Assembly: GCA_017499595.2 (NCBI GenBank)
Contig: CM039004.1
Span: 2,480,001-2,544,000 of the forward strand
Length of the DNA stretch: 64,000 nucleotides
Direction of reading: 5' to 3'
Source of the DNA: Psilocybe cubensis
Lineage: Eukaryota
Program-made: the position numbers and the translations under genes
Shown: piece by piece, positions 1-35,416 of the stretch
How positions within the stretch are numbered: position 1 is the first letter of the stretch
Layout of the letters: every line of letters starts with the position of its first letter
Notes under the pieces: generated by a model
What the model was told of the DNA's origin: nothing
Database searches by the model: none
What the model saw: only the letters and a program-made list of their open reading frames with translations

Positions 1-1463
1 TTGAATATCACACGCCAACCATGTACCATTACGGAGAAATAAACCAGGGCCTATGTATTGGGAAAGGTGCTTTGACCCCATTCTTTCTTGGCACCATCTG
101 CAGTGCGTGGCGACAAGTCGCACAGGACACCTCACAGCTCTGGTGTGCCGTCATTGTGTATATGAATCAGCGGCATGCAGATTCACAAGCTGCCCTGCTC
201 AAATCATGGCTCAAGCGCTCTGGACAACGTCCCATCTCCGTGAAGCTTGTAGAGGGAGACAAGGCGAATAATCGAGACGCTGACTGGCCCACAGACGTCA
301 CGGATATAGAAGGGGATGCCAACCACGAAAGAGCCGACCGGTGGCCCGCCGATTTCGTCGATGTCTCGTCAGCTGTAATCAACGTACTCGCCTCCCACTC
401 AAAACAATGGCACACAATTGATATATTCGTCCCTCACTCATGGAAGTTAGAACTTGCAAAAGTGCGCCATAATATCCCTCTGTTAACGAGCTTGACGCTG
501 CGCGTGGCAGACACCTGCCCTTCACTTGCATACATCGACGTATTCGCCTACGCCCCCCAGCTACACTCGGTCCACCTGGTAGGGTACTCAGTCACAGATA
601 TCTGTCTTCCTTGGAAGCAATTGTGCCATCTTGAGGGGGAATACTTCAGTTCATGGGATTGCCTCAAAGCCATGCATCTTGGGGTACGACTTAGGAAGTG
701 CCAGTTCGAACAGCTCTGTCACGGATTGGAGTTTACCACCTTCAATAGCCGGCCTATCAAGCACGAGTATCTTACTTCGTTCGAATTGTTGATGAAGACT
801 ACGCACGAGCTCGATACCTTTCTCAGCTCGCTGATGTTACCTAATCTGAAAGAACTCGTGGTGTCGCTATCCGATGAAGAGTCTCTGTTGTGGCCCATAA
901 TCCCGCTGATGCGTCGTTCAGATTTCAAACTACAGCTTCTTCATCTCCTTGGCACAACACCGGATGAAGAACAATTGATCGGGTTTTTAAAGGTGCAGCC
1001 GTGGATTAAGTCTTTGATACTCCTCAACCCACTGGTTACCACAGGTGGAACTCTGGGCTATAGCTTTATTGAAGCGATGACGCCCATGAAGGCCAGAAAG
1101 GAATATGACCAGCCAATAGCCTATCTCCTTCCAATGCTTGAGCATTTTGAGTATCAAGGCGCCACATCGTTCACTCCACACAGCCTTGTTCGTCTTCTTT
1201 CCAAACGGTGGCAAACAGGTGCGCAAATTTTGGGTGAGGCCCCAGTTACACATCGTCAGCCACTCCCCTACCCAATCCCTGCAGTTAAGGTCCTTCAAAT
1301 GCAAAAAGTCGAACCAGCTCTTCTCCGCTCAGTGACCATCACCATTTCCAGGGCATGGAATTTAACATTGTCTGACACACAGATAGTTCAACGTCTTGAG
1401 GAAGAGGGCATGCATATCCAACTTCTCGAATTCCCCTCTCGCAACCGTAGGAGGCGTATTTAG
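1..1463 (+). CDS. F-box-like/LRR-type protein, 5'-truncated by the window edge
   Basis: Intronless 480-aa ORF whose frame is open back to base 3. It contains the agaricomycete F-box-like tail TPFFLGTICSAWRQVAQDTSQLW, then WLKRSGQRPISV and LRR-like segments (LPWKQLCHL, LPNLKELVV, LLPMLEHFEY). Confidence 0.8.
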   Translation, partial: EYHTPTMYHYGEINQGLCIGKGALTPFFLGTICSAWRQVAQDTSQLWCAVIVYMNQRHADSQAALLKSWLKRSGQRPISVKLVEGDKANNRDADWPTDVTDIEGDANHERADRWPADFVDVSSAVINVLASHSKQWHTIDIFVPHSWKLELAKVRHNIPLLTSLTLRVADTCPSLAYIDVFAYAPQLHSVHLVGYSVTDICLPWKQLCHLEGEYFSSWDCLKAMHLGVRLRKCQFEQLCHGLEFTTFNSRPIKHEYLTSFELLMKTTHELDTFLSSLMLPNLKELVVSLSDEESLLWPIIPLMRRSDFKLQLLHLLGTTPDEEQLIGFLKVQPWIKSLILLNPLVTTGGTLGYSFIEAMTPMKARKEYDQPIAYLLPMLEHFEYQGATSFTPHSLVRLLSKRWQTGAQILGEAPVTHRQPLPYPIPAVKVLQMQKVEPALLRSVTITISRAWNLTLSDTQIVQRLEEEGMHIQLLEFPSRNRRRRI

Positions 1464-2272
1464 ATAGCCATCCCTGCTGACATTTCATTACCAATCACCC
1501 CCAATTTGTTACAAAAAATTTGTCTAGTGTGCAATATAACTATGGCTTTTACTTTCAACAGACCAAAGTCACTTATTTAAGTATGTGAAAGGTCAAGGTT
1601 AAACGCTACAGGATTCCATTTCTACGTAGCGTGCAGAGGACCACCAGACACGAATCTGCTTTAAAACGAGTAAGGACGAGTTGAAGATGTGCAAAGATAC
1701 CGCCACCCACGTTTAGGTATACGGTTTGTGGTTTGTCTAGGAGGGACTACGTTGTAGGAGGATGCTGGCGGGCGAAGGTATACCTCTTGAGATCTTTTGA
1801 CGATGACCCTTATCTCAAACATGCCCAGAACCTGCCATAGACAGTTTATGGAACGGTGAATATGTTCAAAAGCATAACTTAGGAGTCAGGGTCGGGTCAT
1901 TACTTGAATCCTGCGAGCCTAATGCCCATTTCCATCCCGGGAATCCCTTTCTTATCGCACCTGATTGAGATTTAATCATCAACGCAACATCTTCTCAACC
2001 TCATCGGATATCTGATCCTCCGACTCCGATATTATTTGGACCGAGGCGATTTGAAAAAGTGCGAGGGATAAACCAGAGCATAACTAGATGGGTGGATCGT
2101 AATTAAGGAGGCGAAATCCAGTCTGGAAAGCGAAACAAAGAGAAATGGTGACATAAATTCAATTCGATATCAGCAGCCTGCCGAACGTTTTGGGGCTGCT
2201 TAATGGGGTTTCTTAAAACATATCATTCTCGACCACGGCCCTACTGGTAGTCATCCCACGCCGTCAAGAACA

Positions 2273-4069
2273 ATGATTGCAGGGTCTTGCAAGAATCTAA
2301 ATAGACCCGCAGAGAAATCTCTTCAGTTATCAACCGGTACTCTTCCATAAGTTTTTTCGAATCAGCGTTACAAGGCCTCATGAGCTTAGCACTTGATTCC
2401 GTTTTTTTCAGGCAAATAATGTCTTTTCCTACTCACGAAGTCATTCATTCATGTTGCATTAACCCTGATGGCTTGCAACTCATCACTGGAGGTACGGAGG
2501 TATGCTGAGATACCTGCAACCTTCGATGAAAACTAAAGTCCCAACCCTTTCTTGACTTCAGGAAGCTCCAACGCCGTTAAAGTGTGGTCAATTTCCAGTG
2601 GTACCCTACAACAAACAATATATATTGGCTCAGAAGTAACTTGGATATCTTGGGCGAGGATAGATATCAAGTTTGACAGCTTTTGGGTGGGTTCTGTTGA
2701 CGGGTCAGTCAACCTATATCATTGTCATAGAGCTCGGGCCCCCAATTCCCGTTTTTTTGGATCCCTATACAATACCATCAAGGGACAGTTTTCTTTGAGA
2801 CAACGGATCAAGGTATGCACACTAAACACACATACACCCTGCTTGTTGGTGGCTGAGGGCATACAACAGGTTCGAAGCCACGTTCACTACTCTTTAAGCC
2901 TGAAGTTTTCCTTGTCTGGTCCTGTTGAAGGGATTTCTTCTGTGGAAAACATTGTAGCGGCTGTCGGAGACAAAGATATACAGGTATGGGAGGTAGAGGC
3001 GCATCCGGAAAAGGGAAGCCCTGCGTCTCTTCGTTTTACTCTGTCCGCGATAGAAACACTTCCAGGAAACCAAATATCGCACAATCATATTCCCGACGTA
3101 TCCTTAGGACTTTCACACGCTATCTTAGCCCAGAAGCGGATTCATTCCGTTCACTGTCTCCAGAACTCGATGCTTCTGGTCTCCTTTGTTGACTCACAAC
3201 CAACAGGACAAGAAGGTGTTTTGTGGGTGAGCTTTTTCATGCAAAATAGATGATACCAAAATTGTGTATACTAGGGCCTTATACCGTCTGCGACCTTGGA
3301 GATTTTTCCGAGCAGTTGTGATTAACCGGAGAATGTAAGCCCTCCTTCATCCACTACCATACCTCTTCAGCTCATGTTGAAAAATATTCTATGTCGTTAG
3401 AGGGAAGTTGGCCGTTAGTCAAGACCAAACCAGGCTCGCTTTTACAAATCTTCTCAACGGTGTTGAGTTATTCTCTTTACCAAAGCTCCAATATATCGGA
3501 TCAATCGCACAGAACATTTGTCCGAAGTTGAATGTCACCGTTGGGGTTGTCTATTTAGACAACGATTTGGTGGTTGCCGGGGATGGAGGATGTTTATCCA
3601 TTTACCGCATTTCAGCAAACTGCCCGATTCACCGGCTTCAAGGACCGTTAGACGAAGGTATGTATGCGTGATACTCCCATCTTAAGCTGGCTAATGCGCC
3701 ATTTGCAGATGTCTATCGTAGCATTGATGTGAGTCATTCACTTGCTGTGGAAAATCAATGATTAATGCGGTATTTGAGGTCTCCACTGCACATCACATTG
3801 TTATCGGCGGATCAAATTCAGGGTTAATCACCGCATGGAAATGGGAGAAGGTGACTTGATAACTCCTGGCTGTATACCGGAACACTGATATCGTATGACA
3901 GATGACTGCACGTGGAAATATGAAAGAAAGACGTTTTGTTGAAGGTCTCTGGTACTGTTTCTGTGTCGCCCTGTCACTCCTTTTATTCATCTCCATCCTC
4001 CTTGCCTGCTACCTTTGGCATCAAATACGGCTCACACAGACCTCGCGTCTCTATTCTTCCCCTCGTTAG
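2273..4069 (+). CDS. Multi-exon WD40-repeat protein with a C-terminal hydrophobic (TM) tail
   Basis: Spliced reading gives WD-like blades: HSCCINPDGLQLITGG / SNAVKVWSISSG, VAAVGDKDIQVWEV, AVSQDQTRLAFTNLLNGVELFSLP, IVIGGSNSGLITAWKW. The last exon encodes LWYCFCVALSLLLFISILLACYLW, with TAG at 4067-4069. The start is uncertain. Confidence 0.65.
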
Positions 4070-4722
4070 TTCCATATTTATGACGATATGTAGTTACCTA
4101 TAGAATTTTAATGTAATCCAAATTTGTTCCTGGGCAGAGGAGGGATTCATTGGCTGTGATTTCTGAGTAACGGTCGCAATTCCGAATGCGCTGGCCATCC
4201 ACCAACCTGTCCATTGCAAGAAATATTTTGTTCAGATAACCGTAACCGTGTGGGTACGACGTTGTAGCAGTGTTTCTATGTATAATAACGGATATCGCAA
4301 GTGCCTCACGGTGATCTCTGACTCGGCCTATTTACCAACTGAGGACTGTTTGATTTCTGTTCGATCTGGGGCACAACGCCTGCTGTATCTCGATCTGTAA
4401 CAGCAACTCCGAGGATGGCCTTCGCATAGTTTGAGTGTAAATCGGGTCCAAGCCGAGGTTTCCAGAGAACATATATACCACGGGACCATCCAATGTATTC
4501 ATCAGCATACTCAAGATGTCTCCAATTTCATCCGGATCTTCCGAGGGCCAAACTCGACCTAGTGTCGGGTTTTTAATTATCTCTCGACCATACACAACGG
4601 AATTGCAACATTTAGGATCATATCATCAGCTCTGTTATTTGACACCAGCAGGTCAATGGACTCTGGCAACGACTGGAAAAATGAGCGTTTGTGTCTGGCT
4701 CGGACCTGGTTCATAATTCCCT

Positions 4723-5466
4723 ATGGACGTTCACTACTACGTACTGATTCCTGTGAAAAAATTGCAGATCAGCTTACCATCGACATCCCAGACCTTGTCG
4801 TTTTCTTCATATGGCCGGGGAAGAAGATTATCTTGCGAATCTCCATGTAAGTGCAGCAGTGTCAAGGGCGCTGAAGGTGCGCTAAGGCAAAAGTTATGGT
4901 GTAGTCTCAATTTCACAAACCCTTCCGACCTTACCGTCATCGATTTAGACAGACCGAGCCAAGAGAATACCATGTCGCCCGAGACAAGCATCATATTTCA
5001 CGAACTCCTCAACATCAACACCTCCCCGTGCCTCTTGTTCATTGGCCAAGACAAAGACATTGGCATAGATACGATCTTCAAAGAATCCGACTCCTTATCC
5101 TTTGCAACATTCACACTTAATACTGTAATCGGTGGCATGGAATTCTTTGAGAGGCATATTGTTGAAGGGGATGCGCTTCACTCTGAGACTCTCAAGAAAT
5201 GGTTTGCCATCACTTCCCAGGCGCTAAATGACCAGGATCCAGCAACTTTTCTATTTGATCCCACCATACTGCTGGTGGGCGTGATAAATCACATTAGGGC
5301 CACCATAATCAACAATCATACCTTTGATATCCAAGGGAAAAAGTCAATTGCGATCCCTTTCGCTTTCATTCGCAGTTGGTTTGACATCCTGTTGGCTTTA
5401 CTGAAAGGACCGGAGAAAGATATCACGGTTAGACAGCTGCTTGATTTAGGGAGGGTTGTTAACTGA
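4723..5466 (+). CDS. Hypothetical protein (likely start Met about 4972)
   Basis: Open 247-codon frame. The C-terminal ~165 aa has globular, helical composition. No family recognised. Confidence 0.4.
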   Translation: MDVHYYVLIPVKKLQISLPSTSQTLSFSSYGRGRRLSCESPCKCSSVKGAEGALRQKLWCSLNFTNPSDLTVIDLDRPSQENTMSPETSIIFHELLNINTSPCLLFIGQDKDIGIDTIFKESDSLSFATFTLNTVIGGMEFFERHIVEGDALHSETLKKWFAITSQALNDQDPATFLFDPTILLVGVINHIRATIINNHTFDIQGKKSIAIPFAFIRSWFDILLALLKGPEKDITVRQLLDLGRVVN

Positions 5467-6275
5467 GGTGGCGACGGGGTGAATGCACAGGAGTAGATGA
5501 AATAGCTGTAATGATGATGAAATATTCGCTGCGTCAGCAGGGATCAAGAGCTGTTGACTTCCCAAGTTTGTTGGCGCCGCCTACTGATGCTGTAGACGTT
5601 GTACAATTACACATAAAAAATTTCCTTGATAACAACCCTGCTCACCAAGCGGTTCAGAATGCATGACACACGCCGGTTCGGCCATGCGACCACAACCAAC
5701 TGCCCGCAGCACAAGCACCCCAACTCAAACGCCCAAGCAGGAATTCATCATCTGTAAGCGAAACATCGACGGACGAGTTACCTCGCATGTGACAGAATTC
5801 GTTGAGCTCTCGAGCGCCAGCCGATTTGGTGCAAAGGTCAGGAGAGGTGGGGTGGGCAAAACCCAAGAGTTGGCACGGTAAGAACAATGGAAGGCCCATG
5901 GTCGTCGTATTTCAGCATTGTGGCGCCGCGTAGTTCCACAGATGCAACCGGTTGCGTTCCTGCGGTGTACTGACTGGAAGGATGGAGTGTCTGAGGAGCA
6001 AACCTGCCATGCTGGCCAGAGCATCACGTCAATGAAATTGAAATCGGGTCAGTATTGCAGTGGCGGCCAGAGTCATCTGGCGGAAGTGGTCTCACCGTGT
6101 AAATACATAGAAATGGGGTTGAGGATCGCCACCTGGATCCGTAATTGTGAGTCTGCCATGAAAACAGTCGGCGCTATCCCTTGAAGTCTGAAAAAAGGAG
6201 ATGGAAAGTAAAAAAGGGGAAAAAAAAATCAAAATACCTCCTTCGGCTCAACCCAGCGTGAATTCATGAGACGGT

Positions 6276-6771
6276 TTGAGTACCAAGGGTGTGGAGACTC
6301 GAACAGAACAGCCGCAGGATATGTCAGAGCGCCCCGGGACCATTGACGGCAGCCGTGAGTTCAACCGTGTACATGTATGGGCAGTGGGCGGGGACGTGGC
6401 GGTTACCTTGTGGAAAGGATGCGAAATAGAGCGCGCTGCGAAGTTGTTGGTGATGGAGAAAAAACGAAGACAATGAGTGAATTTTGTGCGGTCTTACGGG
6501 CGCATGCAGGAGCAATGTTGGGCCAGTGCCTTGACCCCCCCGTTCGTTCGCACGGAGCGTGCCGAAACTTACCTGCATGTCGACTCAGAGGGACGCCCGA
6601 AGGCGTACTGCATTTCTGACGTCCGACATCTATGTCGGAATCGCGGGGTGGGGGTGATGAGAGCAACAACGCGCCTAACGACGATGACGTGGTGGGTTGG
6701 GTCGTCGGGCGGGGACCAACCCCGCGCACCGCGTGTACGCCGCCTCCGATTCGATGAACTGGTCGAGGGCC
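6276..6771 (-). pseudogene. Degenerate 5' portion of a TET/JBP-associated gene (relic copy 1)
   Basis: Reverse complement of 6560-6771 aligns by eye with 24358-24515 (e.g. GGCCCTCGACCAGTTCATCGAATCGGAGGCG vs GGCCGTCGACCAGTTCTTCGAGTCGGAGGCG, and the shared CATGTCGACTCAGAG). That segment leads into the recognisable TET/JBP relic at 24.5-25.5 kb. Confidence 0.55.
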
Positions 6772-7509
6772 GCGTTTGGTCTGTTCCCTATGGGTGGTAG
6801 GTGTGGATATGTTGGGACCCAGCCAAAGCCACTCCCGCCAATCCCTGTCTACATTCGAAGCCTACCTGAAACCCCCAGCCCAGGGGTGATCCTTGGTTTT
6901 TCAGGGAGGCTGAGAATGTAGACAGGGAACGGCGAGCTTGGGCATGTACTGTGCGAAGCGCACGCACCTGTGGCATTATTTCGGATCCGCAAAGCAACGA
7001 TGGTGGATGGGTCGTTGTGAACGTGCGGACAAGAATGCTGACCAGTGAGTCGGTGAGTTGGTCTGATCCGGTGTGATGACCAATCATGTATCTGTCACGT
7101 ATATTTGTCACGCTGTTAAGTTTAGGTAATTCTTCCAAAATTCTGCACATTGAAAAGGGGGAAATATCGCGTTGATTCGACGACGGAAACCATCTACATA
7201 CAGCCTAGTTATGTAGGAACATGAAGCACAATACATATTCAAGAGAGCTTGAGTCCAGGAAAGTTTGGCAAAATGCACAAGAGGCGGAGAAAGTCAGGTA
7301 AAGGGTATGAAATGTAGAGACAAATAGGTGGCCTTGACCATGACATAGACCGGCTCGCTAGCCTGTCTCATCTACATACTTATAACACACACCACGCCCA
7401 CGTGAATTATATGTCCGCACGACGCTACTCCAAAGCAACTCCAAAGTAAGCCACTCACATACCAATCCACCAACTGTTTGCCACACAGAGGTCGGACGGC
7501 CGAACTTGT
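6772..7509. repeat. Left arm of a 738-bp inverted repeat (partner 23442-24179)
   Basis: Direct base comparison: colinear, no indels, about 4 mismatches. The ORF track shows the same 120-aa ORF at 6788..7150(-) and 23801..24163(+), differing by one residue. Confidence 0.97.
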
Positions 7510-9344
7510 TCATACCAACGGCCATTTTGGAGGCACCATGATGTATAGCTCTTTTCCGTGCCGCATTTAAATACCCTTAAGTTCTTGCTGCCACAAGACG
7601 TGATACGATTTGCCAATGCCAGGTGACAGTAGCTATTAACGGAAGACCTGATGAACATTATTTGAAGCGACTCCAAATCAGGGAACCGTGTCAGCCATTT
7701 TGACATGTAGGACTATAAACAACAGAAACAATGAGATAAATGTCGAACACAAAAGTTGGTTAAGACGCACACTGAAGGCCTCCCAGTCCCCTGACAGGGA
7801 CCCGGTGTCATTTGTGATACAGGCAAACTTCAGGACCAGGTCATGAATATTGACTGCAACTTGTAGGTGAGTCTTAGAAAAGCATAAACAGCTGTGGGAG
7901 TACAGCCTGAGATGATCTTTGATTGCTGCAGGGAAGTGTATGCAGTGTGAAAATCTGTGGAACGGTGGACCTTGGTGACGGGTAACTGCCTTCACGAGCG
8001 ATTGCACTTCATCGCAGAACACGTGGGTATGAGCACACAGTCGGTTCACTGGCATAACGGTAACACAGGAGAGAATTGACTCATCCGCCATTATCCATCC
8101 GGCATAGTTGGACGAAATGGTGAGTGTGTGGAGGGGTGGAAGCTTGAGGGGAATGGCTTTCAGAGTGACGGCGCTACCGGGGGTACAGTCTCTGTTTGTT
8201 AGAGTTAGATGGCGTAGTTTACTGTTGCGAGAGAAGAAGTAGGGAGGGAAGGAGACTTGGGTTATGTCCAAGAGAACAAACAGCACCATGGTTGACAACA
8301 TGGGCATCTGTATATACCCGAGGACGCTCTGTAGATCGCCAGCTGTGGGGCAGAACAGATTTAAATATGTAATGCATGATCCCCGGAGTAAGGGCTGCAA
8401 GAGAGTTTCTGATGAGGGGCCGTTAAAGAAGGACAGTCCCAACGACATGCATGCAACGCCGTCAATCATACGACGCACTGCATCCTCATTTACCGGCAAA
8501 TGTTGATATAATGTGCTGAGAGGCCCAGAAGGAAATGTGGCATCCGTGATTCCATCGCTTTCTGATCCCTGTTGCATATAAATGTGTGTGCAAGGACCGC
8601 CAACTGAGGCCAAGAATCTGAGAGTAAGCTCTGAAGCTATGAGGGGAAGAATTCCGAGGCAATGCGGGTTAGATGAAAGGCAAATTGACGAAAAGACGAT
8701 CTCCGATTCTTCCAGGAAGCGAAAGAGCACGCTTTGAAAGTAGTACACCGACGCTAAATCAATCGACAAGTTAAGTTGAGCTCCTGTGAAATACCCAGGG
8801 GGAAGGGCGGATAGAAGGATGTAGACAGCCCGGCGAGGACTGTGCGCGGAGATGGAGATCTGCATAAAACGCTCGCAGGAACCATCCCCATACGAGGCAC
8901 ATATAACCCCCCGACGGCGCAGGTACAGGTCATAACAAGGCAGTTGGAAAACTTTGGAAGCACGTGCAAGCGAGAGAATGTCGGTGGCATCAAGGATTTC
9001 GTTGACGACGAGATGGTGGACGTCAAAAGGAAGTTGTAGAAACTTAGATGACAATGTAGCGCGACGTTTCTGAGATCCACAAATTTATATAAATTTCTGG
9101 GATGAGTAGGGTTTAAATACCTTGCATTGCATGTTGCCCTCATCTGTGTCCATTCTTTTCCGTTTGCAATCAATCGATACGTTGCTAATGACGCTCCCTT
9201 GACCCGGTACAGAATCCCCCTGCCAGAGAAGAAAAGTATCGTTAAAACCTTGAAACTTGGTAACCATTTGTCGGTAGGGCGTACCACCAGCAGGGAAATA
9301 AAAGTGTCAGTTCTCTTTAAGAAGTGCTTCAAAATCGACGTCAT
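7455..9344 (-). CDS. F-box-like protein, paralog A (basic N-terminal exons, F-box, LRR-like body)
   Basis: The main exon (~7771-9069) starts KRRATLSSKFLQLPFDVHHLVVNEILDATDILSLARASK. The last exon (7455-7712) reads SYMSKWLTRFPDLESLQI. GT-AG sites fall at the same positions as in paralogs B and C. Confidence 0.75.
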
Positions 9345-9682
9345 GCTATGGGGGTGGAAAGATGGACCGAAGACATACCTCGCCAATTATATTGCTTTTA
9401 AGACAATGACTTTGAGGTGGTTTTTGTTGAACCTATGACTGTGATCAAAACCAGAATGGGGTTCATGATTTTTCTTTTTGTCTACAAGTCTCATACGAAA
9501 GTTACCGTAATAGCGGCTTTTGTGGACGAAAAAAACCCATTCGTATTAGCCGCGTACCTGAAAATTTAAACCAGTTATCTGAAAACAAAGTCATCCGTCG
9601 TTAGATTGAAACTGATTTACCTTGTAGGAGGGCACTTCATCTAAAAGAAGCCATTTTTACCAGTGTTTCTGGATCCCGGCCC

Positions 9683-10294
9683 ATGTCCGACTTCAGCTTC
9701 ATCGGCGGGTGCAACGGAGCTCTTCAATACGAGGTCTCCCTTAGCCGTACACACCTGACAGTGGATCCACCGCAGTCATTCCGAAGGTTGTTAACCTCAG
9801 ATAAGTGGGGGGGGATTGAACCATTCGTGAATACTAGTACGCACTGGAGGCCCCGGATCTCTCCGTTAGGGGGTCTCACAATGCGCTTGGCACGCTCCAT
9901 GACTTTGACAACCCAATTGCAACCAGCTTTTCGCAGCACATATCTATACAGCGAGATTCGATCGACGATTCCCAACCCACGGTCGCCACAACTCCTCCAC
10001 ACTATATCTCCGGTCTGGTCCATGGATCATGATGAGTGGGGCGTAACTACTGTCGACACCGAGTGGTTAAACGTCCTTCGGTTTATCTACCATGTCGCAC
10101 CCCCGAATAACGCCACTTGCCCCATACAACCAGACCGGTGCGTTGTCTGTGGACACAACTTCCTGACCATTGCGGTATCATTACCTTCCTACCCAATACC
10201 CGACTACTGCGCTGTCAAAGATGCCGCGCCCGTCATCCCTGACCACTGGCCTGATTTTCAGCAGCCCACTTGTCTATCTGTTGGTGGTTTGTAA
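9683..10294 (+). CDS. Hypothetical 203-aa protein with a C-terminal Cys cluster (CPIQPDRCVVCGH)
   Basis: Intronless ATG-to-TAA ORF. No family recognised. Weak motif similarity to relics at ~4.4, ~17.1 and ~31.4 kb. Confidence 0.5.
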   Translation: MSDFSFIGGCNGALQYEVSLSRTHLTVDPPQSFRRLLTSDKWGGIEPFVNTSTHWRPRISPLGGLTMRLARSMTLTTQLQPAFRSTYLYSEIRSTIPNPRSPQLLHTISPVWSMDHDEWGVTTVDTEWLNVLRFIYHVAPPNNATCPIQPDRCVVCGHNFLTIAVSLPSYPIPDYCAVKDAAPVIPDHWPDFQQPTCLSVGGL

Positions 10295-10393
10295 AATTCA
10301 TCACCCTCATTTTCACCTACACACCATGCCTTGACCCTTAGGTGTATCTCGCAGAGTATTCCCCACCTGTCTGACAGTTTCGCCTTTTTCCTG

Positions 10394-10690
10394 CAGATAC
10401 TGAACAATGCCATATGTTTGGCATCAACTACCTCAGATTAGCTACCTCATGTCGGCAGCGTTTGGTCGTAGCCGTGTCCACTGAAGGATGGGTGCCTGAG
10501 ACAATTGTACTTCGTCCAGTATGATAGTTGTGTAACGTTGGTACTTTTTCAAGTGCTTCATTCTGGATTTCGGGGAATTCTGCGCATTTAGTCCGTCCAC
10601 GGCCCTTGTACTGATGTTTTTGAAAGCTGCTAATGTCAGAAAGGTATCTGAGGTAACTGATGCCAAACATATGGCATTGTTCTGTATCTG
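10394..10690. repeat. 45-bp inverted repeat pair (10394-10438 / 10646-10690) upstream of the transposase
   Basis: CAGATACTGAACAATGCCATATGTTTGGCATCAACTACCTCAGAT versus the reverse complement of 10646-10690, CAGATACAGAACAATGCCATATGTTTGGCATCAGTTACCTCAGAT: 42/45 identical. Confidence 0.9.
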
Positions 10691-10972
10691 GTATCTGTAT
10701 CTGGTGCTCTTTCAAGTGTGCCATAGCACTTGAATTTAGGGAAGGTGGCGCATTTTGTCTATACACGGTCCTTGTTCTGACGTTGGCAACAGCACCATGG
10801 TCCTTGTACCTCTCTTGTTTACTACTAAGTCTGGGAACGGTTAGGTAGCATTTCTGTTACCGGATTAGACACAAAGTTGACATTGCACCGACCTTCAAAA
10901 GGCACCAGTTTTTAGAGGCGACCGTCGTACAGCTGCTCTCTCTCACATCTACCTACACCCACTACAACGTCT

Positions 10973-16539: not shown

Positions 16540-16690
16540 GTTTCTGTGTTGTTGTCTTCCTCCTTGATCAGTCTAGTTTGGTCTGTTCCAACGCCGTCTG
16601 CGTCCACGCTCGCTCACCACACTCATTACTCCTGCGCATGCCACTGGCTGGTCTCCGCCCAACAGCGTCCTACTCTCCTCTACCAACACC

Positions 16691-24179: not shown

Positions 24180-24299
24180 AGACCAACTGCGACTACGCGC
24201 GGTACACGGTATGGGATCCTTTCACCCGTTGTTGACAATCTCACCATCCCTGCTCCTCTTAGATGTGGTCTGGCAGGATCTATGCAAGCTGCAAGGAGG

Positions 24300-25520
<1,221 letters not shown>

Positions 25521-25701
25521 GCAATTTTGAGTTACAGGAATAAGAGGATGAGGGTACAGAGATGTAGGGCACTGGCTAGTAATAGGTATGCTAGCATTAT
25601 CGTTTATCGTTACAACAACAAAACTGGTTCTGGACCCCTGCGCTCCTGCCAAAAAAAAATAAATATACGCAGTATAGATACACATTATCCCAGACCCTGT
25701 C

Positions 25702-26937
25702 CTATACTTTTGGCTTTGATCGCGAAGAAGTGTTTTTCAACAACCGCCGAAGAAATTCGTTGGTGGCCCAATCATTTTCGTATCCAGCCAATACAGGATA
25801 CTCGGATATGGCCTAGTTGCATACGAATGGTTATAGGCACACCTTATGAACCAGTGAATATAGGGTCTACTTACCTCTTCCCTCAGACTAGCCAACTCCT
25901 CTACATCTTGATCCTTGAACGGCTTACGGATGTCCAAATGTTTCTCTGCAAGAACTTTTATCGCAGCCTATATTCTATTAGTCTAGGATCTACCAAATCT
26001 GTGTAATAAAGCCTACCTTGATGGCAGCAAACTCTGCCGCAGGCCATTGCAAATATGCCTGTAATTTCCCACTTGTCAAGTGTACAGGCTTTGCTATCAG
26101 CCCACCTTCTCTCTGGGGCCCCACAGTTGTCGATGTTAACAGATTCTTCCCAGAAATTAGGGGCGGAGGCGTAATTGCGTGCCTCAAAGGGTCGGCCCGG
26201 GGCGAACTGCCTTGAGAGGTGTTTGGAGAGGTGTTTGGACTAGGAGGATGAAAGGACGCTTTAATGACTCTCGACCCAGATGGAAGGGTCCGTGTCGCAT
26301 GTCCAAGGTCTTCAATAGACTCTTGCTCGGGAAGTGAGTGCAAGAACCTGTTTTTGAAACCAGGTCTCTGGACGTATTTCCATCAGAAAGTGGCAAGGTC
26401 AAAGCGTGTGGGAGATTGAATTTTGGGCATCTTTAATGAATCGAAAGTCAGTCTTTAGGACGTTTTAAACCTCGGAGGCTTATTATGAGAGACGTGCACT
26501 TGTCATTGACAAATACAACAATAATGCCCGGCGGTATCGCGTATCGCGTTGTCAGGCTTTCCTGGACAATTGGATTGGACAACTGGATCACGCCTGCAAC
26601 AATCGCAGTCACCATAGGCACCTATACAACGACATCGCGCTGACTCAAACAAAATCTCTTTCTCTTTTAACTTCTGCGCGATCAGCTCGTTTGCCGACCC
26701 AGAAACACTTATTAAATGCATTCTTGAGACTTGCTCGAGACCAAGCACGAGGTTGTTAGTACGACAAAATTTCAAATCTCATCACATAATATTTGATCGT
26801 GAGCCAACACTCAAAACATAACTAGCAGGAGAGGATAAGGGTGATCGACGAACCCCTCCAGGATTGACGGCAACATTGATCATGAGAGGGGGGCGGGATC
26901 CGAAGGAGGATGTTGCCATGCGAAGAAGCGTAGTCAT
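25702..26937 (-). CDS. Multi-exon hypothetical protein with a conserved basidiomycete C-terminal domain
   Basis: The spliced C-terminus reads LIAKPVHLTSGKLQAYLQWPAAEFAAIK/AAIKVLAEKHLDIRKPFKDQDVEELASLREE/AISEYPVLAGYENDWATNEFLRRLLKNTSSRSKPKV*. I recognise this pattern from agaric hypothetical proteins in transposon-rich regions. The 5' exons are uncertain. Confidence 0.6.
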
Positions 26938-27254
26938 TTCGAGCTCCGCTGCTCGCGCTTGTGGAGAGCATGCACAGACCAAAGCGAGGCCTACGCCTCA
27001 TACCAGCGTCCGGCGCCAAGATCCTTATTGTAAACGCTTACCGGTTTCCGTGAAGAGCACAGGCACAATAGAAAATCAGTGGTGATTATATCCGAATGTA
27101 TTGTTCCATTGTGACCGCCTCAGTACCTGACCGGCGGGGGAGAACAATAGCCAGGTTCGGTAATGTAAACTGGGAATACAAGGGAGGGGGATCTATATAA
27201 TTTACATGTCTTACGTTGTGAGCCTCAATTAACCCCCTCCTGAAGATAAAGAGA

Positions 27255-28767
27255 ATGCCACACTGGGCTCGACCTTCGTTTCCTCTCTGGGAAGATGACC
27301 CAGTCTCGTCAGAATCCTTGCCATCACCCCAGAGACCCGAACGTTCAAATGTGTCCGCCGTGAATACGGATGAAGAGTAAGACATCATCTTCTGTAATTC
27401 TATAACACGTCTTCTAATAATTGTCAGGCGCGGGATGAGTGTTGACAGGGATCACTCCGAGGAAGAAGAAGTTGTGGAAGCGCTCAACGAAAACGACGAA
27501 GTCGACGTCAGAGTGAGACAAGCACCCCCTGCTAAACGGGGGAACAAGAGCAAAAAGGAGAATACGATTCATGCAAGTAGAAAATTTGATTTTGATTCGA
27601 AGTCTGACGCCTGAGCAGTCCATATTGCGCGCATACCTCATATACAAGAAACTTATCAAGCATAACGCGAAAGATCCCCGTAAAAATGATGCTTACGGCG
27701 TCCCGATCCCATCCTACCCACCATCTCCTGAGGAATCTGTCGTCAAGTTGTACATTGAAATGCAAACAAGCACAGGCCCCGATCCGAAAAACCTGTTACT
27801 ACTCTGGTCGAGTCCCATGTCGCACCCATGGAATCAACAGGTACTCAACCTTCTTCTTGACGACCTTTCAAACTACGTCAAGGATAAAGCACTACTCCAG
27901 CTGACTCAGCTCGCTGAAAGGAGCATCGGGGCCGACACAGACGTGTTGGAACTCTTTGACGGGATTGTATCCCCTGCTAGTGTCAAGCATATACTGGAGA
28001 AGAAGCTGGATAACTGTCGACAAAGAATACAGACTAGTATGAGGAAGGTATACAGAATGCAGAGGCCGACAGATACATCTACCCCGCTGACAGATAATGA
28101 AATACGCGCTGAGATGTGCAAAGGGAACCTTGAGCTCGCTCAAACCAACCGGCGAAGAGAGCGAAGGAATTTAGTGAGCAGTTCTCCCTTCTTAATTATT
28201 TTTTTACTCACCAAACGACAGAGATATATTCGTCGATATGAGATTATTGAAGAGCAGTTAATGCTCGCAGTAGACGATGACGCCCGTGATTTTTGGAGGT
28301 CAATTCAAGCGTTATATACCCACTTCACCCATAAGGACACAAGCTCCGACGAATCTGAGGGAGAATGTCGTCCCCCGTTGGTAAAAAGAGTAAGGCGGAT
28401 TAGACGGGGTTGGATATCACCATCTGTATCTGCGGTATGGCCGTTTTCTTGTTCGCAAAAGTGTACTAATTTTTTATCTTACAAGGTGTTTCATTTTGTT
28501 GACAAACATTATACTCCAGAATACATCACCGGGATGAAAAAGCGCGGAGCAGCGCCTCTGCCTCGAGAGGTAGAGTCAGACAAGGTCGATGAACGTTCAA
28601 AGCCGACCCCTGAGCTTCCTATAAATTTTTATTCGTCCGATCTACCACCTCTAGTCCTCAAAGCATTGCGGCCAAGACCAAAATTTCCAATTCCCAAAGT
28701 GAGTCCCATTCTCACGTACCCAAGTTTTTAATCCTAACAGTGTTTATAGTTACCTGCTGATAAATAA
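27255..28767 (+). CDS. Transposon-associated accessory protein (WN...RRxxRR...SSDES...W...LPxNFY family)
   Basis: Motifs HPWNQQVLNLL, NRRRERRN/RYIRRYEII, FWRSIQALY...DTSSDESEGE, RRGWISP, KKRGAAPLPR, PELPINFYS. Several GT-AG introns and one likely GC-AG intron. Confidence 0.65.
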
Positions 28768-29492
28768 GGTAGTAGACAATCTAGATACTGGAATCAAGGT
28801 ATGCATATCCAATGCATATCCAACCATTTAGTTTGTCAATCGGAAGAAATCTCTTGTAATGAAATCATGCGCTCGAGCGCTGGTATATCATCTATGCCTT
28901 CTCATTAACTTGAATAGGCAGAAGTCGCCGTCACGTGTAGACTATTACTACTTCCTTATTTATCTTAACAACACACTACCTACAAGACTCCTCGTACAAA
29001 ATACATCCTCATCATCCGCTTAGTGCCTACACGCACAAACCATTGTTATTTTCAAGCCCATTCACGCACACCAGCTAACTTACCATTGAAATATCGCATC
29101 TCAAACAAACACAATCTACGCTGTTAAAACTGACCTCATCATCGTCCTCTAACGCTTACAAAACAACAAAGCACTATAAGGTAGCGTTGAAACCTTTAGA
29201 AGTGCGTCACAGGGTCATCCAGCGCCCAGCCGTCGATTTCTACGGCCTGGAGACGAAGCGGCCGTCCTTTTGGTCGTGGACCTCTTTATCCCCCCGCCGC
29301 CAACCAATGAGAAAAGATATCTCCAAAGTGACATCAATCAATAACCAACTCGGTGTTAAGATCCTGATTTGTTCTGAAATCCATATAACCCGGGGTACCT
29401 TTCTAGAATCTGGAACGTATACCTTTCGTTGCTCATATACAACATTCGTGTGCGAAAACGACGCTGCCGCTCAACCCCACTCACAACGTACA

Positions 29493-30681
29493 ATGGACTG
29501 CACGATATGCCTTGATGTCATGGAGCAAACGGGGTGCTGTCTTCCCTGTGGTGCGTTTTGCTCACTTGGTCCCATACTGTATTTTCCAGACGGGGTTTGG
29601 TGGTGCTGACGGTCATCTAGGTCATATATTTTGCGAAGGCTGTCTGAGAAATCATTGGGTCCACAATGCTACTGCTTCACGAAGCCTGTTATGTCCTGCC
29701 TGTCGCGATGAAATCATTCAACCGAGTACGTATATCATAACTGACCCACCCTCTTCTCCATGCTAGGTTAAATGCTGATCACAATCCAATGCAGGAGAGT
29801 CTGTGGACTGTATCCGGAAGGTGTTCATTATATCCACAGATTCTGTGGCCAATTCACATACGGCACAGGAGGAAACTCGCTTCTTGCGCGAAACTCTGGA
29901 GAAAATAAAAGAGGAGAAGGAATTAGTTCTCCAAGAGCTGGCTTCCGCTCGTACTGAACAGGCCCTCACAAACCAAAGGTTAAAAGATAACCTTTTCATC
30001 GCGAAGCTAAAAGACGCCCAAATACAGCAGATTCAGCACCAACTGGAACAAGCTCACGATGCATTGAATCGTAGTTCATTGGAGACAGCTACACGCGAAG
30101 CTCACGCAAACAACGAAATCAGGAAGCTGCGACAGGAAAATGCAACACATAAGGCAGTCATTGAAGAGATAAAAGGTAAAAACAAGGGTCTCGAGAGCGT
30201 GATCGAGGATCTGCACAAGAAAATAAAGGACCAGCAGATTCACATTGCTAATATGCAAAAAAACGAGGGAGGGAGGGACACTGGTGGGCTAAGGACCTCC
30301 CATATCAAGAAAGGGTGTCCGATTGAAGGGGGGCACGATCTCCCAGATGTAAAACGTAGGCTTGATTTTTGTCAGCCAGGAACACCCACTTCTCCGACCC
30401 TCATTTCAAGGAGCGCAACAGATGCAAGCTCAGCATTGGAAGATGCGGCCCATCCGGTGAATTCTTCCACAACAAGGACTCCGATGAGTGGAGGGGCCAT
30501 AAAGCATATAGGATATGGGTACCCGAGAGAACATGCGGTCCCAGATTGCATCCCAGAACGCAACGGATGTCACCAATTTTCTGGAGCTGGAAGTAACGCC
30601 CACTACAGACAATTCACATGCATGTATTGCCATTTTTGGTGCAGGGAACCACAACCCAACAACAAAGGTATTGAGCAGTGA
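29493..30681 (+). CDS. C3HC4 RING-finger plus coiled-coil protein (putative E3 ubiquitin ligase)
   Basis: Spliced MDCTICLDVMEQTGCCLPC/GHIFCEGCL...LLCPACRDEII, then a long heptad region and a C-terminal Cys/His motif CHQFSGAGSNAHYRQFTCMYCHF. Confidence 0.82.
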
Positions 30682-31745
30682 GTAACCCTTCCCGGTAACG
30701 ATACTGACACCAAAACTGCATCGGTGAATAGATCCGGGAACTGGTCCAACTTTGTCGAGCACGTATTCGTTGTGAGTGTGGTTTTCCTTTCAAAGAAAAT
30801 GTACACACTTATATGGTAGGCCTCGTGCTGGTGAATCCTCGAATGATCCACAGATGGCCACCACCCTTTCATCGAGCGGGGATGCGCAAGTGACACAGAA
30901 AAGACGAGCACAGAAAAAAAACCTCGTGGGGCACGCGAAGGAGGCGCAAGGGACATACGGGAAATAGGACGTGTGTGAGTAGGTAATGGACGTGTGTGAT
31001 TGGCGGGGTGACGTGCTTCGCGTGTTAGTCCCGGTGATGTCGATGGGGTGTGGGATCGATTAACTTGAACAAATTTTGTCAACTTTCTGTGTTGTATCAG
31101 ACCCGGCCTACGATTTTAAAAAATTGATGCAGGATATGAAATAGAGGTAAATTATTAATGGTGGTTGTGGTGATTGTTATATGGATCAGCAACCATGATT
31201 CTGTTCAACGACGAAGGTAACCAGCTTCTTGTGGCAATATTTACATATCTTCAATCAACAAATGTTAGCAGAAAGAATTAGGGGGCACCTTGACGTGCGT
31301 TGGGCATTCCCAGGCCCCTTCAAGAGATTTGAGTGCCGTTGATCAGGATTCCAAGAGGCAGAGATATGGGGATGGAGGTAGGATGTAGGCGCCTCCGGGT
31401 GATGATATGCATCAGTCAGAAATGATATAACAGGCAGGGTTGGCGCTGTGTTGTGCAAGGGACGTGGGGATGTGCTATGGTACTATTGTTGGCCACCCAA
31501 AGGCTCTATGGCCGGAAACCATCTATCCATAAACTATATATCCGGGACTTACTTCAGTTTATACATATATGGATCAGATGTTTTTATGTCCGGAATACAT
31601 GTGCAATCCGCCAACCATATTGATTAATTGACTAAATTTGTTCTATTCATCTGAACCTGGCATGCAACCAGCTAAAAAGCCATACTCGGTGAAATGTTAT
31701 CCATGATCAAAGTCGTCAGCTACACTCCCTGACCAGTTATGATGG

Positions 31746-33551
31746 CTAACTCTGCGGAATCCAATGGTCATGCTGGAAATACCACGCGGTGTAGTTTTCT
31801 TCTGTACCACATTGGAAAGTCTGAAGATCTTTACTAGATTGGTATTTCAGGCTCTGTGCCAACGATAATTCGGTGTTCGGAGTATGGCTGGAAGGACCCA
31901 TATAAGTTATTTGAAGAGATTTCAGGTCTGGAAACCATTTTAGCCATTTGGATATGTAGGACTGCGCAAATCAAGATGTTACCATTAAATATTTAGAAGG
32001 GTAGACATAATTTGGTACGCACACTGAACGCAACCCAGTCCTTTAGTGGGGAATCAGTTCCCATTATGCGGGTGAATTTGAGGACCAGAGTATGAACATT
32101 GACTGCGAGCTGATCATGGGCCTTGGGAAAGCATGTGCAATTCTGTGAGTGTAGCTTGACGTGATTTCTGATTCTGCCAGGGAATGTTAGACAATACGGG
32201 AATTTGGGGGATGTGTCTTGATACTGGCTGACCGCTCCCACGAGTAACCGCACTTCGTCACAGAAAACGCCGTTATGGGCGCATCGATAATTCGTCGGAT
32301 TAATACTGACGGAGGCCAGAAGCGACTGGTCACTCATCCGCCATCCAGAATAATTGGATGAAATGGTAACCGTACGAAGAGGTGGAAGCTCGAGGATAGA
32401 CCCCTGAGCGATATGATTGACAGGGTTACTGCATCCATTTGTTAAGGTAAGCCGCTGTAGGGATTGATGCCGATGGAAGAATTCGGTTGGGAAAGAGATT
32501 TGGGTGACGTCTGAGAGAACCAAAAGGACCATTGTTGACACTGCTGGCATTTTCACGTCATTGAGAATATCCTGGAGAGTAGCAGTCTTGGAGCAAGACA
32601 GCACTAAAGATGTAATAGACGACCCTTGGAGTAAGTGCGGTGCAAGGGTCCGGATTGTGGGCGAATCAAAAAAGGACAGTGGCAAATCCATAGATACGAT
32701 ACCATCCATGGCAGGGCGAATGGCATCCACATTGATATGATTAGAGTCCAGATGATGTCCGAATGAATTTATGGTGGTTGTGACTGCGTTGAATTGTGGG
32801 TTTTCCCACATATAAAAGAAAGTGCAAGATGCACCGACTGAGGCTAAGAGTCTCATCATGAGTGATGGGACTTCGGAAGAAAGGGTTTGAAGGGTCTGGG
32901 GGGTGTATAAGAAAGAAAGACCTGTGACAATGAGCTGCGAATTTTCTAGGAAGTTGAACATCATATTTTGAAAGTGATACAGAGGGTCCAGATCAATCCA
33001 CAAACAGGCATGGACTTGAGCAAAATGGTTAGAGCGGAGGGATGACATTAGGATCAAGAGAGCCAAGCGAGGAGTGTATTTGTTGATCCTCATCGTGATC
33101 CGGCGTTTGTGGATGTCAGGACTAGCGTTCTTTTGAATGACGGATTGACGCTGCAAATACAGGTCATAACAAAGATATCGGAAAGCATTGGAAGTATGGG
33201 CAAGCGAGAGAATGTCGGCGGTATCAAGAAATTCGTTTATGATGATGTGGTGGATATCATGTGGAAGCTCAAGGAATTTGGATTCCAATGTATGGCGTCT
33301 CTGGACGATAATTAAATATTGTTAATGGATTTCTTGGTGAGAAGGTCGGCGTACCTTGTGCACCATCCTGCTTTCCTCCACGTCCATTCTCTTTCGTTTG
33401 CGAGAAATTGATTTGTCATCTGAGCCCCCCTGCAAGAAAACGAAATAAGCCACTGAACTTCGGAGAGTATTTTGTCAGCTAAGCTCACTGCCAGCAGGGT
33501 CATGACGGTTTTGGTCCTCTTCAAAAACTGTTTCAAGGTCGAAGTTGTCAT
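31746..33551 (-). CDS. F-box-like protein, paralog C
   Basis: 5' exons read MTTSTLKQFLKR / ISRKRERMDVEESRMVHK. The main exon starts RRHTLESKFLELPHDIHHIIINEFLDTADILSLAHTS. The last exon reads SYISKWLKWFPDLKSLQI...QCGTEENYTAW, with TAG at 31746-31748. Confidence 0.75.
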
Positions 33552-34149
33552 GAGAATTCGATAGAGCACATTATCACACAGCCTATGTTCAGCCGTTTAT
33601 AATGCTCTTAAGACAATTAGTGTGCGTATGGCAAGACTAATGAAAACGTCAATTGTGGAGGAAATCGGGCCAGTAGATCAATTGTGTAATTATAATTATG
33701 CTTATTGTCTGTCAATATGTACCATGGTTATATAATTGTGGATCACAGAACCCGACGGACTGATTGCATCAGAGACAATCAACGCTTTCGAATTAGCGAC
33801 ATACCCATCTCCAAATTTCCCCTTTTTCGCCCTCCGCCCAAGCCGTTATGTTGTTCTTCCATGCTGTTGTCTCCCTTTATTACCACCCCTTGACGAGCAG
33901 CATCACAGTTACGGTTTCAGTGTATTGGTTGTCAGCCAACGTTTTTGTCTTTTCAGTAAGTGGAAATGCCGATGGATCACTATAAGCAGGACATGCAGGA
34001 TAGGTATGTCCATGCGTGTCTTTCAATTATTTCCATCTCAATCAATTGTGGGGCGTACCCTAAGCTTGCGGGAAACCTCACACCTTGGACTGTGCCTTTG
34101 CGGACGTGGGTGCGGCGTGCAGGGACTCGAGAAGGGTACTGAGAATGGA

Positions 34150-34400
34150 TACGCTCGACCTGCTCTTTCGATTTCTCCTCGCCATGTATGCTGAGGCGGC
34201 AGTAGATCAGTTCTTCGAGTCGGCTGCCCTCGAATGCACGTTGCCATCATCATCGCCCCCACCCAATTCCAACATAACATAACCTGTCAGAAACGTCGTA
34301 AGCCTTCAGGTGACCCTCTAATGGACCACGCAAGTTCAAGCGCACGGATGACTACAACCGCACGGATGACTACAACCAGCACGGGAACCCTCACTCCCCG
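34150..34400 (+). pseudogene. Degenerate 5' portion of a TET/JBP-associated gene (relic copy 3)
   Basis: AEAAVDQFFES..LPSSSPPP matches AEAAVDQFFES..LPLSSPQP at ~24350-24440. CACGCAAGTT..GCGCACGGATGACTA is shared with ~24493-24520. Confidence 0.55.
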
Positions 34401-34586
34401 CGAACAGGGTAGTAGATTGTTCGATGAAAGGCATACGAGCGAGCGTGAGCCCATACGAGAATGCAGGCAGATACGACTGATGATCCACCCCGCCATGAAC
34501 AACGGCGATACGCCGCTGCTTGCTCTTGTAACGGGAGCGACGGCGAATGGCAGAATTTCTGCATGCGAGGATGCTGAGACACCATC

Positions 34587-34645
34587 AGCGTAAACTTAAA
34601 CTTAGCATATAGCGTAAACTTAGCATACAGCGTAAACTTAGCATA
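34587..34645. repeat. Three tandem AGCGTAAACTTAGCAT(A) units of about 18 bp, candidate subterminal repeats
   Basis: Units at 34587 (with an internal AAACTT duplication), 34611 and 34629. Confidence 0.85.
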
Positions 34646-35407
34646 AAAATGCGCTGGGGTGGATATGAACCAGGCGGCAATGAGGATGCAGTTGTGATGG
34701 GCAATTATGATCACGATTATGCTCACGATCCGCACAATTCTTCACTGTGCCAAATGGTAGTAGAGGAGTAGATTAGCTTCGTCATAAATATTGAGAAGAT
34801 ATATTGTAAACATACTTAAATTGCTGCTGAGCCAACTCACTGGAAGGAATATTAGATAGAAAGGCGTAATTATGAGGATGATCATGAGCAAGTGCGGCGC
34901 GGATAGCTCGCAATCGATAATGATCCGTGAGAGCCACAACAGAGTCACGTGTAAGATTTTGATCTCAAGGATGGATCAAAAGCCAGACGGGCTCAGGACG
35001 GTACGTGCTGTACATGACCAGTACTGCTACAATACCTGACAGGTACCTGTTTATAATTTTATGGTTCACAAACATTTTTATTTTGACAATGCCTTTTCAG
35101 ATTCAACAAAAAGGTTGATCTATTTTTATTGTTTTATTGTTTTCGGTAGAGGCTAAAATGAATTATAAAATATAATATACATGGTTGTCAGCCAGTACTT
35201 ATTGTTCACACACCAAGGTTTAATACAAAATTTCATTTTAATTCACGTAGAAAAATACATATGTGCCATCACTTTTACAGTTTATGCAAAATCTTTGCCC
35301 AATTTGAAATGTTTTAAACCTCTTTTACACGCTTTTGTACAAATGATCCAATCATTATTCTCTGTCAATTTTTTTCAACATTTGTGACAATCTAAAAATG
35401 ATTGCGG

Positions 35408-35416
35408 CGCGTAGTG
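35408..35416 (-). mobile_element. Candidate CACTA terminal motif (CGCGTAGTG; reverse complement CACTACGCG)
   Basis: It sits at the end of a ~360-bp AT-rich stretch, at the switch from the accessory tract to ordinary genes. A 5-mer is expected by chance many times in 64 kb, so its position is the only support. Confidence 0.35.

Follow-up and report, generated by a model that had tools for sequence, protein, structure and literature searches.

The question raised by this locus is whether the left part of the stretch, in Psilocybe cubensis, is one giant transposon or a piece of chromosome in which the parts of an element lie among other genes. The window, by which we mean the whole 64 kb stretch that was analysed, contains a transposase gene of the CACTA/EnSpm (tnp2) type at 10916-14697, and the first-pass annotation had read everything from 1 to 35416, called the tract below, as a giant (at least 35 kb), cargo-carrying CACTA/En-Spm transposon. 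One mobile unit of 35 kb was not demonstrated for 1-35416, as paired ends were not found and the locus was single-copy and fixed in three of three other strains. The tract is, in our judgement and with modest confidence, a species-restricted, orphan-gene-rich chromosome piece of Psilocybe cubensis type with immobile CACTA/EnSpm-type remains, that is, a patchwork of parts. Under this reading, a CACTA-type element of two or more genes (the transposase and a WD40-like partner, perhaps with a DUF8263-like gene) would have entered or arisen in a fast-evolving region where F-box-like and other lineage-specific genes were already present. The element would have copied a fragment of a DRG (developmentally regulated GTP-binding protein) gene, and local duplications, inversions and insertions would then have broken it up, leaving it fixed, single-copy and without recognisable paired ends.

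The transposase gene and its locus in other strains

The window is eukaryotic, intron-bearing DNA. The conserved part of the transposase gene (plus strand) spans 11618-14697 in three exons and matched Transposase_21 (PF02992) with an E value of 3.3e-10 and 40 bits, against a cutoff of 28.6, and DUF4218 (PF13960) with an E value of 4.2e-4, under its cutoff. The region aligned in three exons to residues 128-1085 of the 1087-aa homolog of Galerina marginata, and the spliced model, with introns at 13148-13202 and 13870-13951, contained 981 codons and no stop. Eighteen homologs were found at E≤1e-5, none of them above 76% identity, the value of the best one; the best named homolog was that of Galerina (55%). 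The invariant columns in an alignment of 16 sequences were D228-W-x-N-P, D325-T, and C344-S-R-C347, and the stretches P-L-E-R and H-x3-H were seen in the exon-2 translation as well as in the Galerina homolog. These conserved acidic and motif residues are presumed by us to be catalytic, from the general literature and from PMC12730594. On its domain match, full-length alignment, and open codons, the gene is placed in the CACTA/EnSpm (tnp2) group and appears intact, in agreement with the single, apparently intact tnp2-type DDE transposase first described. Within the species, the conserved part showed four replacement versus two silent changes, numbers that are small and give no hint of strong constraint. 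A 13-nt tandem repeat adjoins a 45-nt inverted repeat (93%, spacer of 207 nt) at 10394-10690, shortly before the transposase open reading frame (ORF).

A Pfam scan of 133 stop-to-stop ORFs of at least 75 aa from 1-36.6 kb matched 12 families, whose kinds included Transposase_21, DUF4218, F-box-like (2 ORFs), F-box_4, MMR_HSR1_Xtn, RING-type, Fung_rhodopsin, and WD40-type. Neither a recombinase, a reverse transcriptase, nor a second transposase was among these ORFs, and no housekeeping-type domain was matched, as expected from the earlier statement that the tract has no intact housekeeping gene. The transposon-type accessory genes described with it were not recovered, the transposase being the only ORF with a transposon domain, though two genes of the tract recur beside related transposases. 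X-read-through translations of 18.9-27.3 kb in six frames matched 0 Pfam families, and no tRNA gene or Rfam family was present in the window.

Mapping covered 5501-25500 in 30 bins at a likeness of at least 85%, with raw reads of X11 and contigs of X5, X9, and X6; X5, X9, and X11 are other strains of the same species, and X6 is organism C, another species. The region was present in public runs labelled with the same species name. The depth of X11 was 28-68 per bin in all 30 bins (median about 45, maximum 1.5 times). Because this depth rose nowhere but at the DRG fragment, a single copy of the transposase and its neighbours is present at a likeness of at least 85%. Contigs of X5 showed 0 differences over 7467-15334 and 3 over 16817-23484, and contigs of X9, which matched the same intervals, showed 29 and 26, respectively. 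The contigs of both strains were colinear with the window (0-29 differences per 6.7-7.9 kb), interrupted only where the inverted duplication and the DRG fragment lie, and X11 carried two haplotypes of the tract, with single-nucleotide polymorphisms at intermediate frequency. Since X5, X9, and X11 carry the region in the same order, 5.5-25.5 kb is fixed and colinear in three of three other strains and shows no sign of mobility; in the alignment to other strains, as proposed by the first-pass annotation, this region was occupied in all three.

The strain comparison also bore on the mutation pattern. In 5829-15115 of the window, 23 of the 40 best-supported differences from X9/X11 were C>T or G>A at CpG, and over the whole stretch X11 showed 116 C>T plus G>A versus 62 reverse transitions. 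The ratio of observed to expected CpG was 0.79-0.87 in the tract and 0.83-0.97 to its right. The excess of C>T and G>A resembles what deamination of methylated cytosines would leave in a silenced region. A low diversity of the tract relative to the right flank, estimated from word shares, was inseparable from ordinary strain relatedness and was dropped.

Related loci and the candidate right end

A scan of metagenome contigs with an alignment of the transposase gave 19 loci with 37-53% protein identity, 10 of which had at least 3 kb of flank. The closest metagenomic relatives, L001 and L011, were 86% identical to each other; their flanks were unrelated, and their similarity then started sharply and in parallel immediately behind an A, at CACTAGGCGCAG. 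Judged from this alignment, the boundary is a transposon terminus, which in L011 precedes the first transposase ORF by about 1 kb, and by analogy with L011 the left end in the window would be expected near 10 kb and not to the left of base 1. No similarity was found between the subterminal region of L011 and the window upstream of the transposase, and inverted repeats of at least 25 nt flanked the transposase in none of the six long related loci. A right end of L011 at 13835-13848 (11/14) was rejected, as its flanks were not repeated and 0.8 such sites were expected by chance, and the boundaries in L005, L006, L007, and L009 were rejected as ends, as they faded gradually, had no terminal inverted repeat (TIR), and looked more like conservation on the scale of a gene.

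A candidate partner gene was indicated by the neighbourhoods of these loci. The WD40-like (beta-propeller-type) gene of the window (2305-3856, plus strand), which was named by the first-pass annotation and is borne out by weak Pfam WD40/WDR3 matches and about four exon pieces, lies 7.7 kb upstream of the transposase. L011, L002, and L014, 3 of the 10 loci with at least 3 kb of flank, had homologs of this gene near the transposase (tblastn E values from 3e-18 to 8e-8). The matches were colinear in all three loci, at about 1-6 kb from the transposase, while the order and orientation of the two genes varied. The WD40-like family comprised 5 clusters at E≤1e-10 in an exhaustive search of 1.84 billion representatives, and because it is so rare, the three co-occurrences are not chance. 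A protein search found no longer relatives of the WD40-like ORF. The basidiomycete-specific ORF of 404 aa at 27517-28731 (plus strand), which resembles DUF8263 clusters (Atlas score 0.96, low recognition), had a homolog at 3575-4483 of L017, 5.5 kb from the related transposase (E value 2e-27), and an F-box-like homolog was found near the transposase in L008 (E value 4e-11). F-box genes are very numerous in agaricomycetes, and for this reason the one F-box neighbour may be fortuitous.

The flanks of the related loci were as domain-poor as the tract, their 133 ORFs yielding only Transposase_21, DUF4218, one JmjC, and one HSP70 match. In loci L002-L019 (ORFs of at least 120 aa), the JmjC hydroxylase domain (E value 1.5e-8) was on one flank ORF and the HSP70 piece on another. 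L007 (2063-3652) and L014 (5798-7154) had a second gene in common beside the transposase, with 70-75% DNA identity and on opposite sides and strands; one ORF of this gene gave a weak WD40 match (E value 0.0019), and the gene is possibly a further, diverged partner of WD40 type. In L004, direct repeats of 1.9 kb with internal sub-repeats (6542-8433 and 15475-17352, 98.9% identical) flanked the transposase homolog, with partial copies at 1961-2766.

At the right end of the tract, the earlier description of tandem repeats and TAGTG was confirmed, with two 18-nt arrays and TAGTG at 35412-35416. The candidate CACTA-type terminus at 35405-35416 (minus strand), CACTACGCGCCG when read inward, was the only exact CACTA-type match, and it was identical to the boundary of L001 and L011 at 10 of 12 positions, 5 of the 7 beyond CACTA included. 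For a pre-specified site, the 5/7 match had a p value of about 0.013 (our own calculation), but about one such match was expected by chance among the 69 CACTA-type sites of the 64 kb window (33 TAGTG and 36 CACTA, about one per 930 bases). Whether a genuine terminus of the family lies at 35416 is roughly evenly balanced; the motif may be one surviving terminus of a family member, closing perhaps a large element or one of 11.2 kb, or it may be a chance match that closes nothing.

Subterminal repeats had been named as a CACTA hallmark by the first-pass annotation; no 7-9-mer was enriched in 34650-35416, and the 18-nt arrays sat 770-1080 nt inside the end. GC content showed no step at 35416. No partner of the 35416 end beyond chance was found in 1-35300, where the best site (24191) matched at 10 of 12 positions, and paired CACTA-type ends across 1-40 kb gave nothing beyond chance except the known inverted duplication. 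Pairs of the forms CAC..GTG, CATCA..TGATG, and TGT..ACA with duplications around the transposase were likewise not above chance, and no left end of the proposed element was found within the window. To the right, the next gene encodes a DUF6533 membrane protein (35398-36573, plus strand; E value 2.5e-14, domain exon 35553-35768). ATG was absent from 35401-35602, and the nearest upstream ATG of this gene, at 35398, is inside the claimed element, so the gene appears either to start inside the claimed end or to have lost its first exon. Genes with familiar domains (Sds3-like, SDR, and cyclase) began only at about 41 kb, and the picture of conventional genes resuming abruptly behind the end was not sustained.

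Patchwork signs and rival explanations

The DRG fragment at 15383-16892 (plus strand; MMR_HSR1_Xtn, E value 1.4e-6) lies directly behind the transposase and agrees with the captured host-gene fragment described earlier. Its read depth was 1.5 times in X11, and its summed contig depth was roughly double in X5 and X9. In organism C it was about 96% identical and was the only long part of 5.5-25.5 kb found there. The fragment is rearranged at a junction (16535-16538) and contains a tandem duplication of 30 nt (16197-16254), which the other copies lack and which was left out in the contigs of X5 and X6. It was copied from a host gene recently and in scrambled form; its proposed capture by the element follows from its position, and a plain segmental copy would look alike.

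An inverted duplication of 0.95 kb brackets 16 kb around the transposase. Copy 1 (6561-7512, minus strand) abuts the 3' end of the first F-box gene, and copy 2 (23439-24507, plus strand) has about 166 nt (24185-24350) that are missing from copy 1. The inner 746 nt were 99% identical and the outer part about 77-87%, and the arm was represented in both X5 and X9 by a 725-nt contig at double depth, corresponding to two copies per genome. A repeat of about 230 nt, ending in the splice-donor-like GTAAGT, occurred three times, at 6561-6778, 24351-24507, and 34152-34354; the third, partial copy forms with the two 18-nt tandem arrays (34337-34384 and 34597-34645) a segment at 34152-34645 (plus strand), and one of the arrays belongs to a repeat that is also present at 24508. 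The 18-nt unit CAACCGCACGGATGACTA (24506; 34337-34384) varied in copy number, with one extra copy behind 24506 in X5 and a loose end there in X9. Each arm of the inverted duplication also contained a palindrome with 50-nt arms (6829-6941 and 24010-24122). In X11, 52-61 reads kept only the 33-nt centre of this palindrome (6869-6901 / 24050-24082), followed by a different, again palindromic flank, which suggests a 33-nt core common to a small foldback or MITE-like (miniature inverted-repeat transposable element) family. About 35 nt at 20260-20295 showed 3- to 12-fold depth in all four runs, the other species included, with unrelated sequence on both sides; this is a short, widely dispersed repeat that is neither a tRNA nor an Rfam family.

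Three F-box-like paralogs are present on the minus strand at 7458-9386 (main ORF 7681-9084), 17338-18924 (main ORF 17590-18924), and 31749-33596 (main ORF 31996-33321), with 32-44% protein identity to one another. Pfam F-box-like matched two of the three, below its curated cutoff. The ORF at 31996-33321 was 99% identical to the Psilocybe cubensis hypothetical protein JR316_0008316, and a second paralog was 60% identical. From their divergence, these supposed cargo genes are judged to be ancient paralogs. Four F-box genes had been counted; three stand as paralogs, while the fourth was probably the ORF of 486 aa at 3-1463 (plus strand), an orphan that runs off the left window end, matched 0 Pfam families, and showed no similarity to the three, and no further F-box relic was found anywhere in the window. 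The divergence of the F-box genes, the inverted duplication, and the rearranged DRG junction with its private 30-nt duplication are the signs of a patchwork.

Several observations weigh against the patchwork. If the 10/12 motif 20.7 kb downstream of the transposase is a real end, it fits a large element as well as it fits a patchwork. Homologs of three tract genes were found within 10 kb of related transposases, the DUF8263-like and F-box-like genes at one locus each. In organism C, only 8 of the 30 bins of 5.5-25.5 kb were found at a likeness of at least 85%, just the DRG piece and short repeats, a gap that alone proves nothing, and 0.17 of the sampled words of 31-41 kb were shared; an insertion would fit this pattern. 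Near the 3' end of the transposase, however, a match of 107 nt at 85% suggests a diverged homolog in organism C. Finally, an X5 contig of 11250 nt that starts at 24150 would, if colinear, end at about 35399, near the claimed end.

One rival is a single DDE-mobilised CACTA-type transposon of at least 33 kb, which would run from beyond base 1, or from at least 2.3 kb, to 35416, carry the F-box, RING, WD40-like, 7TM (seven-transmembrane), and DUF8263-like genes, and now be fixed. The resemblance of its right end to the L001/L011 terminus, the recurrence of its genes near related transposases with so rare a WD40-like family among them, a tract unalignable in organism C beside a part of 31-41 kb common to both species, the stop of the X5 contig, and an intact transposase all speak for it. 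We nevertheless consider it distinctly unlikely, in view of the invisible left end, the single copy fixed in all three other strains, the age of the F-box paralogs, a right end without subterminal repeats, a terminus in L011 about 1 kb from the first transposase ORF, the position of the nearest upstream DUF6533 start codon inside the claimed end, and the single chance match of 5/7 to be expected from 69 sites; the largest En/Spm elements found in print, as cited in PMC6431247, are 16-20 kb. Another rival is a domesticated transposase, under which the tnp2 and WD40-like genes would be host genes in loose Agaricales microsynteny on an ordinary, fast-evolving chromosome without transposon ends. 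This is a serious rival, although an unlikely one: the gene is single-copy, fixed, intron-bearing, and intact, has only 18 homologs at E≤1e-5 and low copy everywhere, keeps the same rare partner nearby in three other lineages, and is flanked by inverted repeats of at least 25 nt in none of six long related loci, but a mobile element would be expected to show a sharp CACTA-type boundary with unrelated flanks, as seen in L001 and L011, the two genes differ in order and orientation among loci, replacement changes are not outnumbered by silent ones (four to two, small numbers), and the gene is followed immediately by a fragment copied from a host gene.

Two further arrangements divide the tract. 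An 11.2-kb non-autonomous CACTA-type element at 24191-35416, with the DUF8263-like, RING, and third F-box genes, could lie beside a transposase-bearing remnant; its size is typical of the superfamily, L017 has a homolog of its DUF8263-like gene near a related transposase, and 24191 has a weak TIR-like sequence, GACTACGCGCGG, at the inverted-duplication breakpoint, matching the reverse complement of the 35416 end at 10/12 and 18/30 positions. Against it, 24191 starts with G and not C, about 0.08 sites like it are expected by chance (our own calculation), the flanks (TGC versus TGG) form no clean duplication, and 24.2-25.5 kb has single-copy depth, so that we hold it very unlikely. Scarcely credible is an 18-kb long-TIR or composite mobile unit at 6561-24507, bounded by the 0.95-kb inverted repeats, even though the transposase, two F-box genes, the DRG fragment, and the 7TM gene lie between its arms, which share 99% identity over 746 nt. 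Each genome has exactly two arm copies, and the segment is in its place in every strain; diverged sequence that recurs at 34152-34354 forms the arm ends, which have no CACTA-type motif, and the inner arm boundary is the end of the coding sequence of the first F-box gene.

Remaining genes and comparison with known systems

In addition to the genes above, an orphan ORF of 249 aa at 4717-5466 (plus strand) gave nothing in Pfam and nothing usable in the Atlas. Two of the gene calls of the first-pass annotation were recovered here: the 7TM gene, a multi-pass membrane protein of PTH11/fungal-rhodopsin-like type with hydrophobic exon ORFs at 21508-22834 (plus strand; Fung_rhodopsin E value 1.1e-3; about 21.5-22.9 kb), and, weakly, the RING gene at 29079-30681 (plus strand), which consists of RING-finger exons at 29079-29763 (motif at 29407-29763, E value 5e-4) followed by a coiled-coil-like ORF at 29779-30681. 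Three TET/JBP relics had also been named; Tet_JBP matched none of the 133 ORFs and none of the six-frame read-through of 18.9-27.3 kb, and what occurs three times is the repeat of about 230 nt. According to section 3.2.3 of PMC12730594, PE-type TET/JBP proteins escape sequence profiles, and since such proteins in the tract may be outside the reach of Pfam, this absence is not strict. On the right flank, two tandem paralog pairs were found at 51773-54529 and 55417-58763; one pair has 37-45% protein identity, and the other, with 58-82% identity, adjoins or overlaps the putative cyclase gene at 56166-57026.

Among known systems, fungal EnSpm/CACTA elements resemble the locus in tnp2/Transposase_21 with DUF4218, in the acidic and C-x-x-C columns, and in a CACTA-type terminus, which is present in the relative and a candidate in the window. 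Fungal EnSpm ends are described as 5'-CAC..GTG-3' with 3-bp duplications (Kojima 2025, PMC12730594), and CNIRT6 of Cryptococcus neoformans is an active CACTA element with a CACTG motif and a gene annotation of about 6.9 kb (PMC12810828). The window differs in that no paired ends, target-site duplication, or second copy was seen and that the candidate end is 20.7 kb from the transposase. "WD40" had 0 occurrences in the searched text of PMC12730594, supplements aside, and the WD40-like gene that repeatedly adjoins this low-copy Agaricomycetes CACTA-type clade points to an undescribed partner protein or a domesticated gene pair. The defined CACTA-type terminus of one lineage is now searchable.

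Plavaka elements (PlavakaA/B) share with the locus the broad CMCT clade and the host group Agaricomycetes, and they are sometimes linked to TET/JBP genes (PMC12730594, section 3.2). Their ends are given there as TGT..ACA (2-bp duplication) or CATCA..TGATG (2-3 bp), whereas no CATCA..TGATG pair with a duplication flanked the gene of the window and TGT..ACA pairs matched at no more than 13/25 positions; PF18759, which is precomputed on the Puccinia homolog P0017, had no match at E≤0.01 in the window transposase. In PMC12730594, the TET/JBP genes of Agaricomycetes are described as carried by Kyakuja, Zisupton, EnSpm, Plavaka, and Helitron elements. The KDZ (Kyakuja-Dileera-Zisupton) group is similar as basidiomycete DNA transposons with an extra gene, the association behind the TET/JBP interpretation of the first-pass annotation, but the window transposase is tnp2-type and not KDZ-type, and no Tet_JBP was found.

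With regard to size, En/Spm families of the red alga Chondrus crispus, with 16-20 kb and 4-5 ORFs (cited in PMC6431247), are likewise CACTA-type and above the usual one or two genes. These families are multi-copy and have defined ends, whereas the window locus is single-copy with undefined ends and would be about twice as long. No CACTA-type element of this size was found for basidiomycetes in the literature searched, supplements aside, of which those of PMC12730594 may list Agaricales EnSpm termini, and nothing relevant on Psilocybe cubensis with CACTA, EnSpm, or F-box was among the papers listed. Starships are similar in their large size and in the idea of many cargo genes, but they have a tyrosine-recombinase captain at one end, which was not among the 12 Pfam families of the tract, where the enzyme is a DDE transposase. 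The statement that these giant elements are confined to ascomycetes is outdated, as Starships are reported in the basidiomycete Tremella fuciformis (PMC13066641).

If the tract were a single element of at least 33 kb, it would exceed all known CACTA-type elements in size and give mushrooms a DDE counterpart of Starships, with a family-typical accessory set (rare WD40-like, DUF8263-like, and F-box-like genes) between CACTA[C/G]GCGC termini. DDE cut-and-paste would then move tens of kb of whole genes in basidiomycetes, a second gene-shuffling route besides Starships. Plant CACTA elements pick up host-gene fragments, and the rearranged DRG GTPase fragment directly behind the window transposase is like them in this respect.

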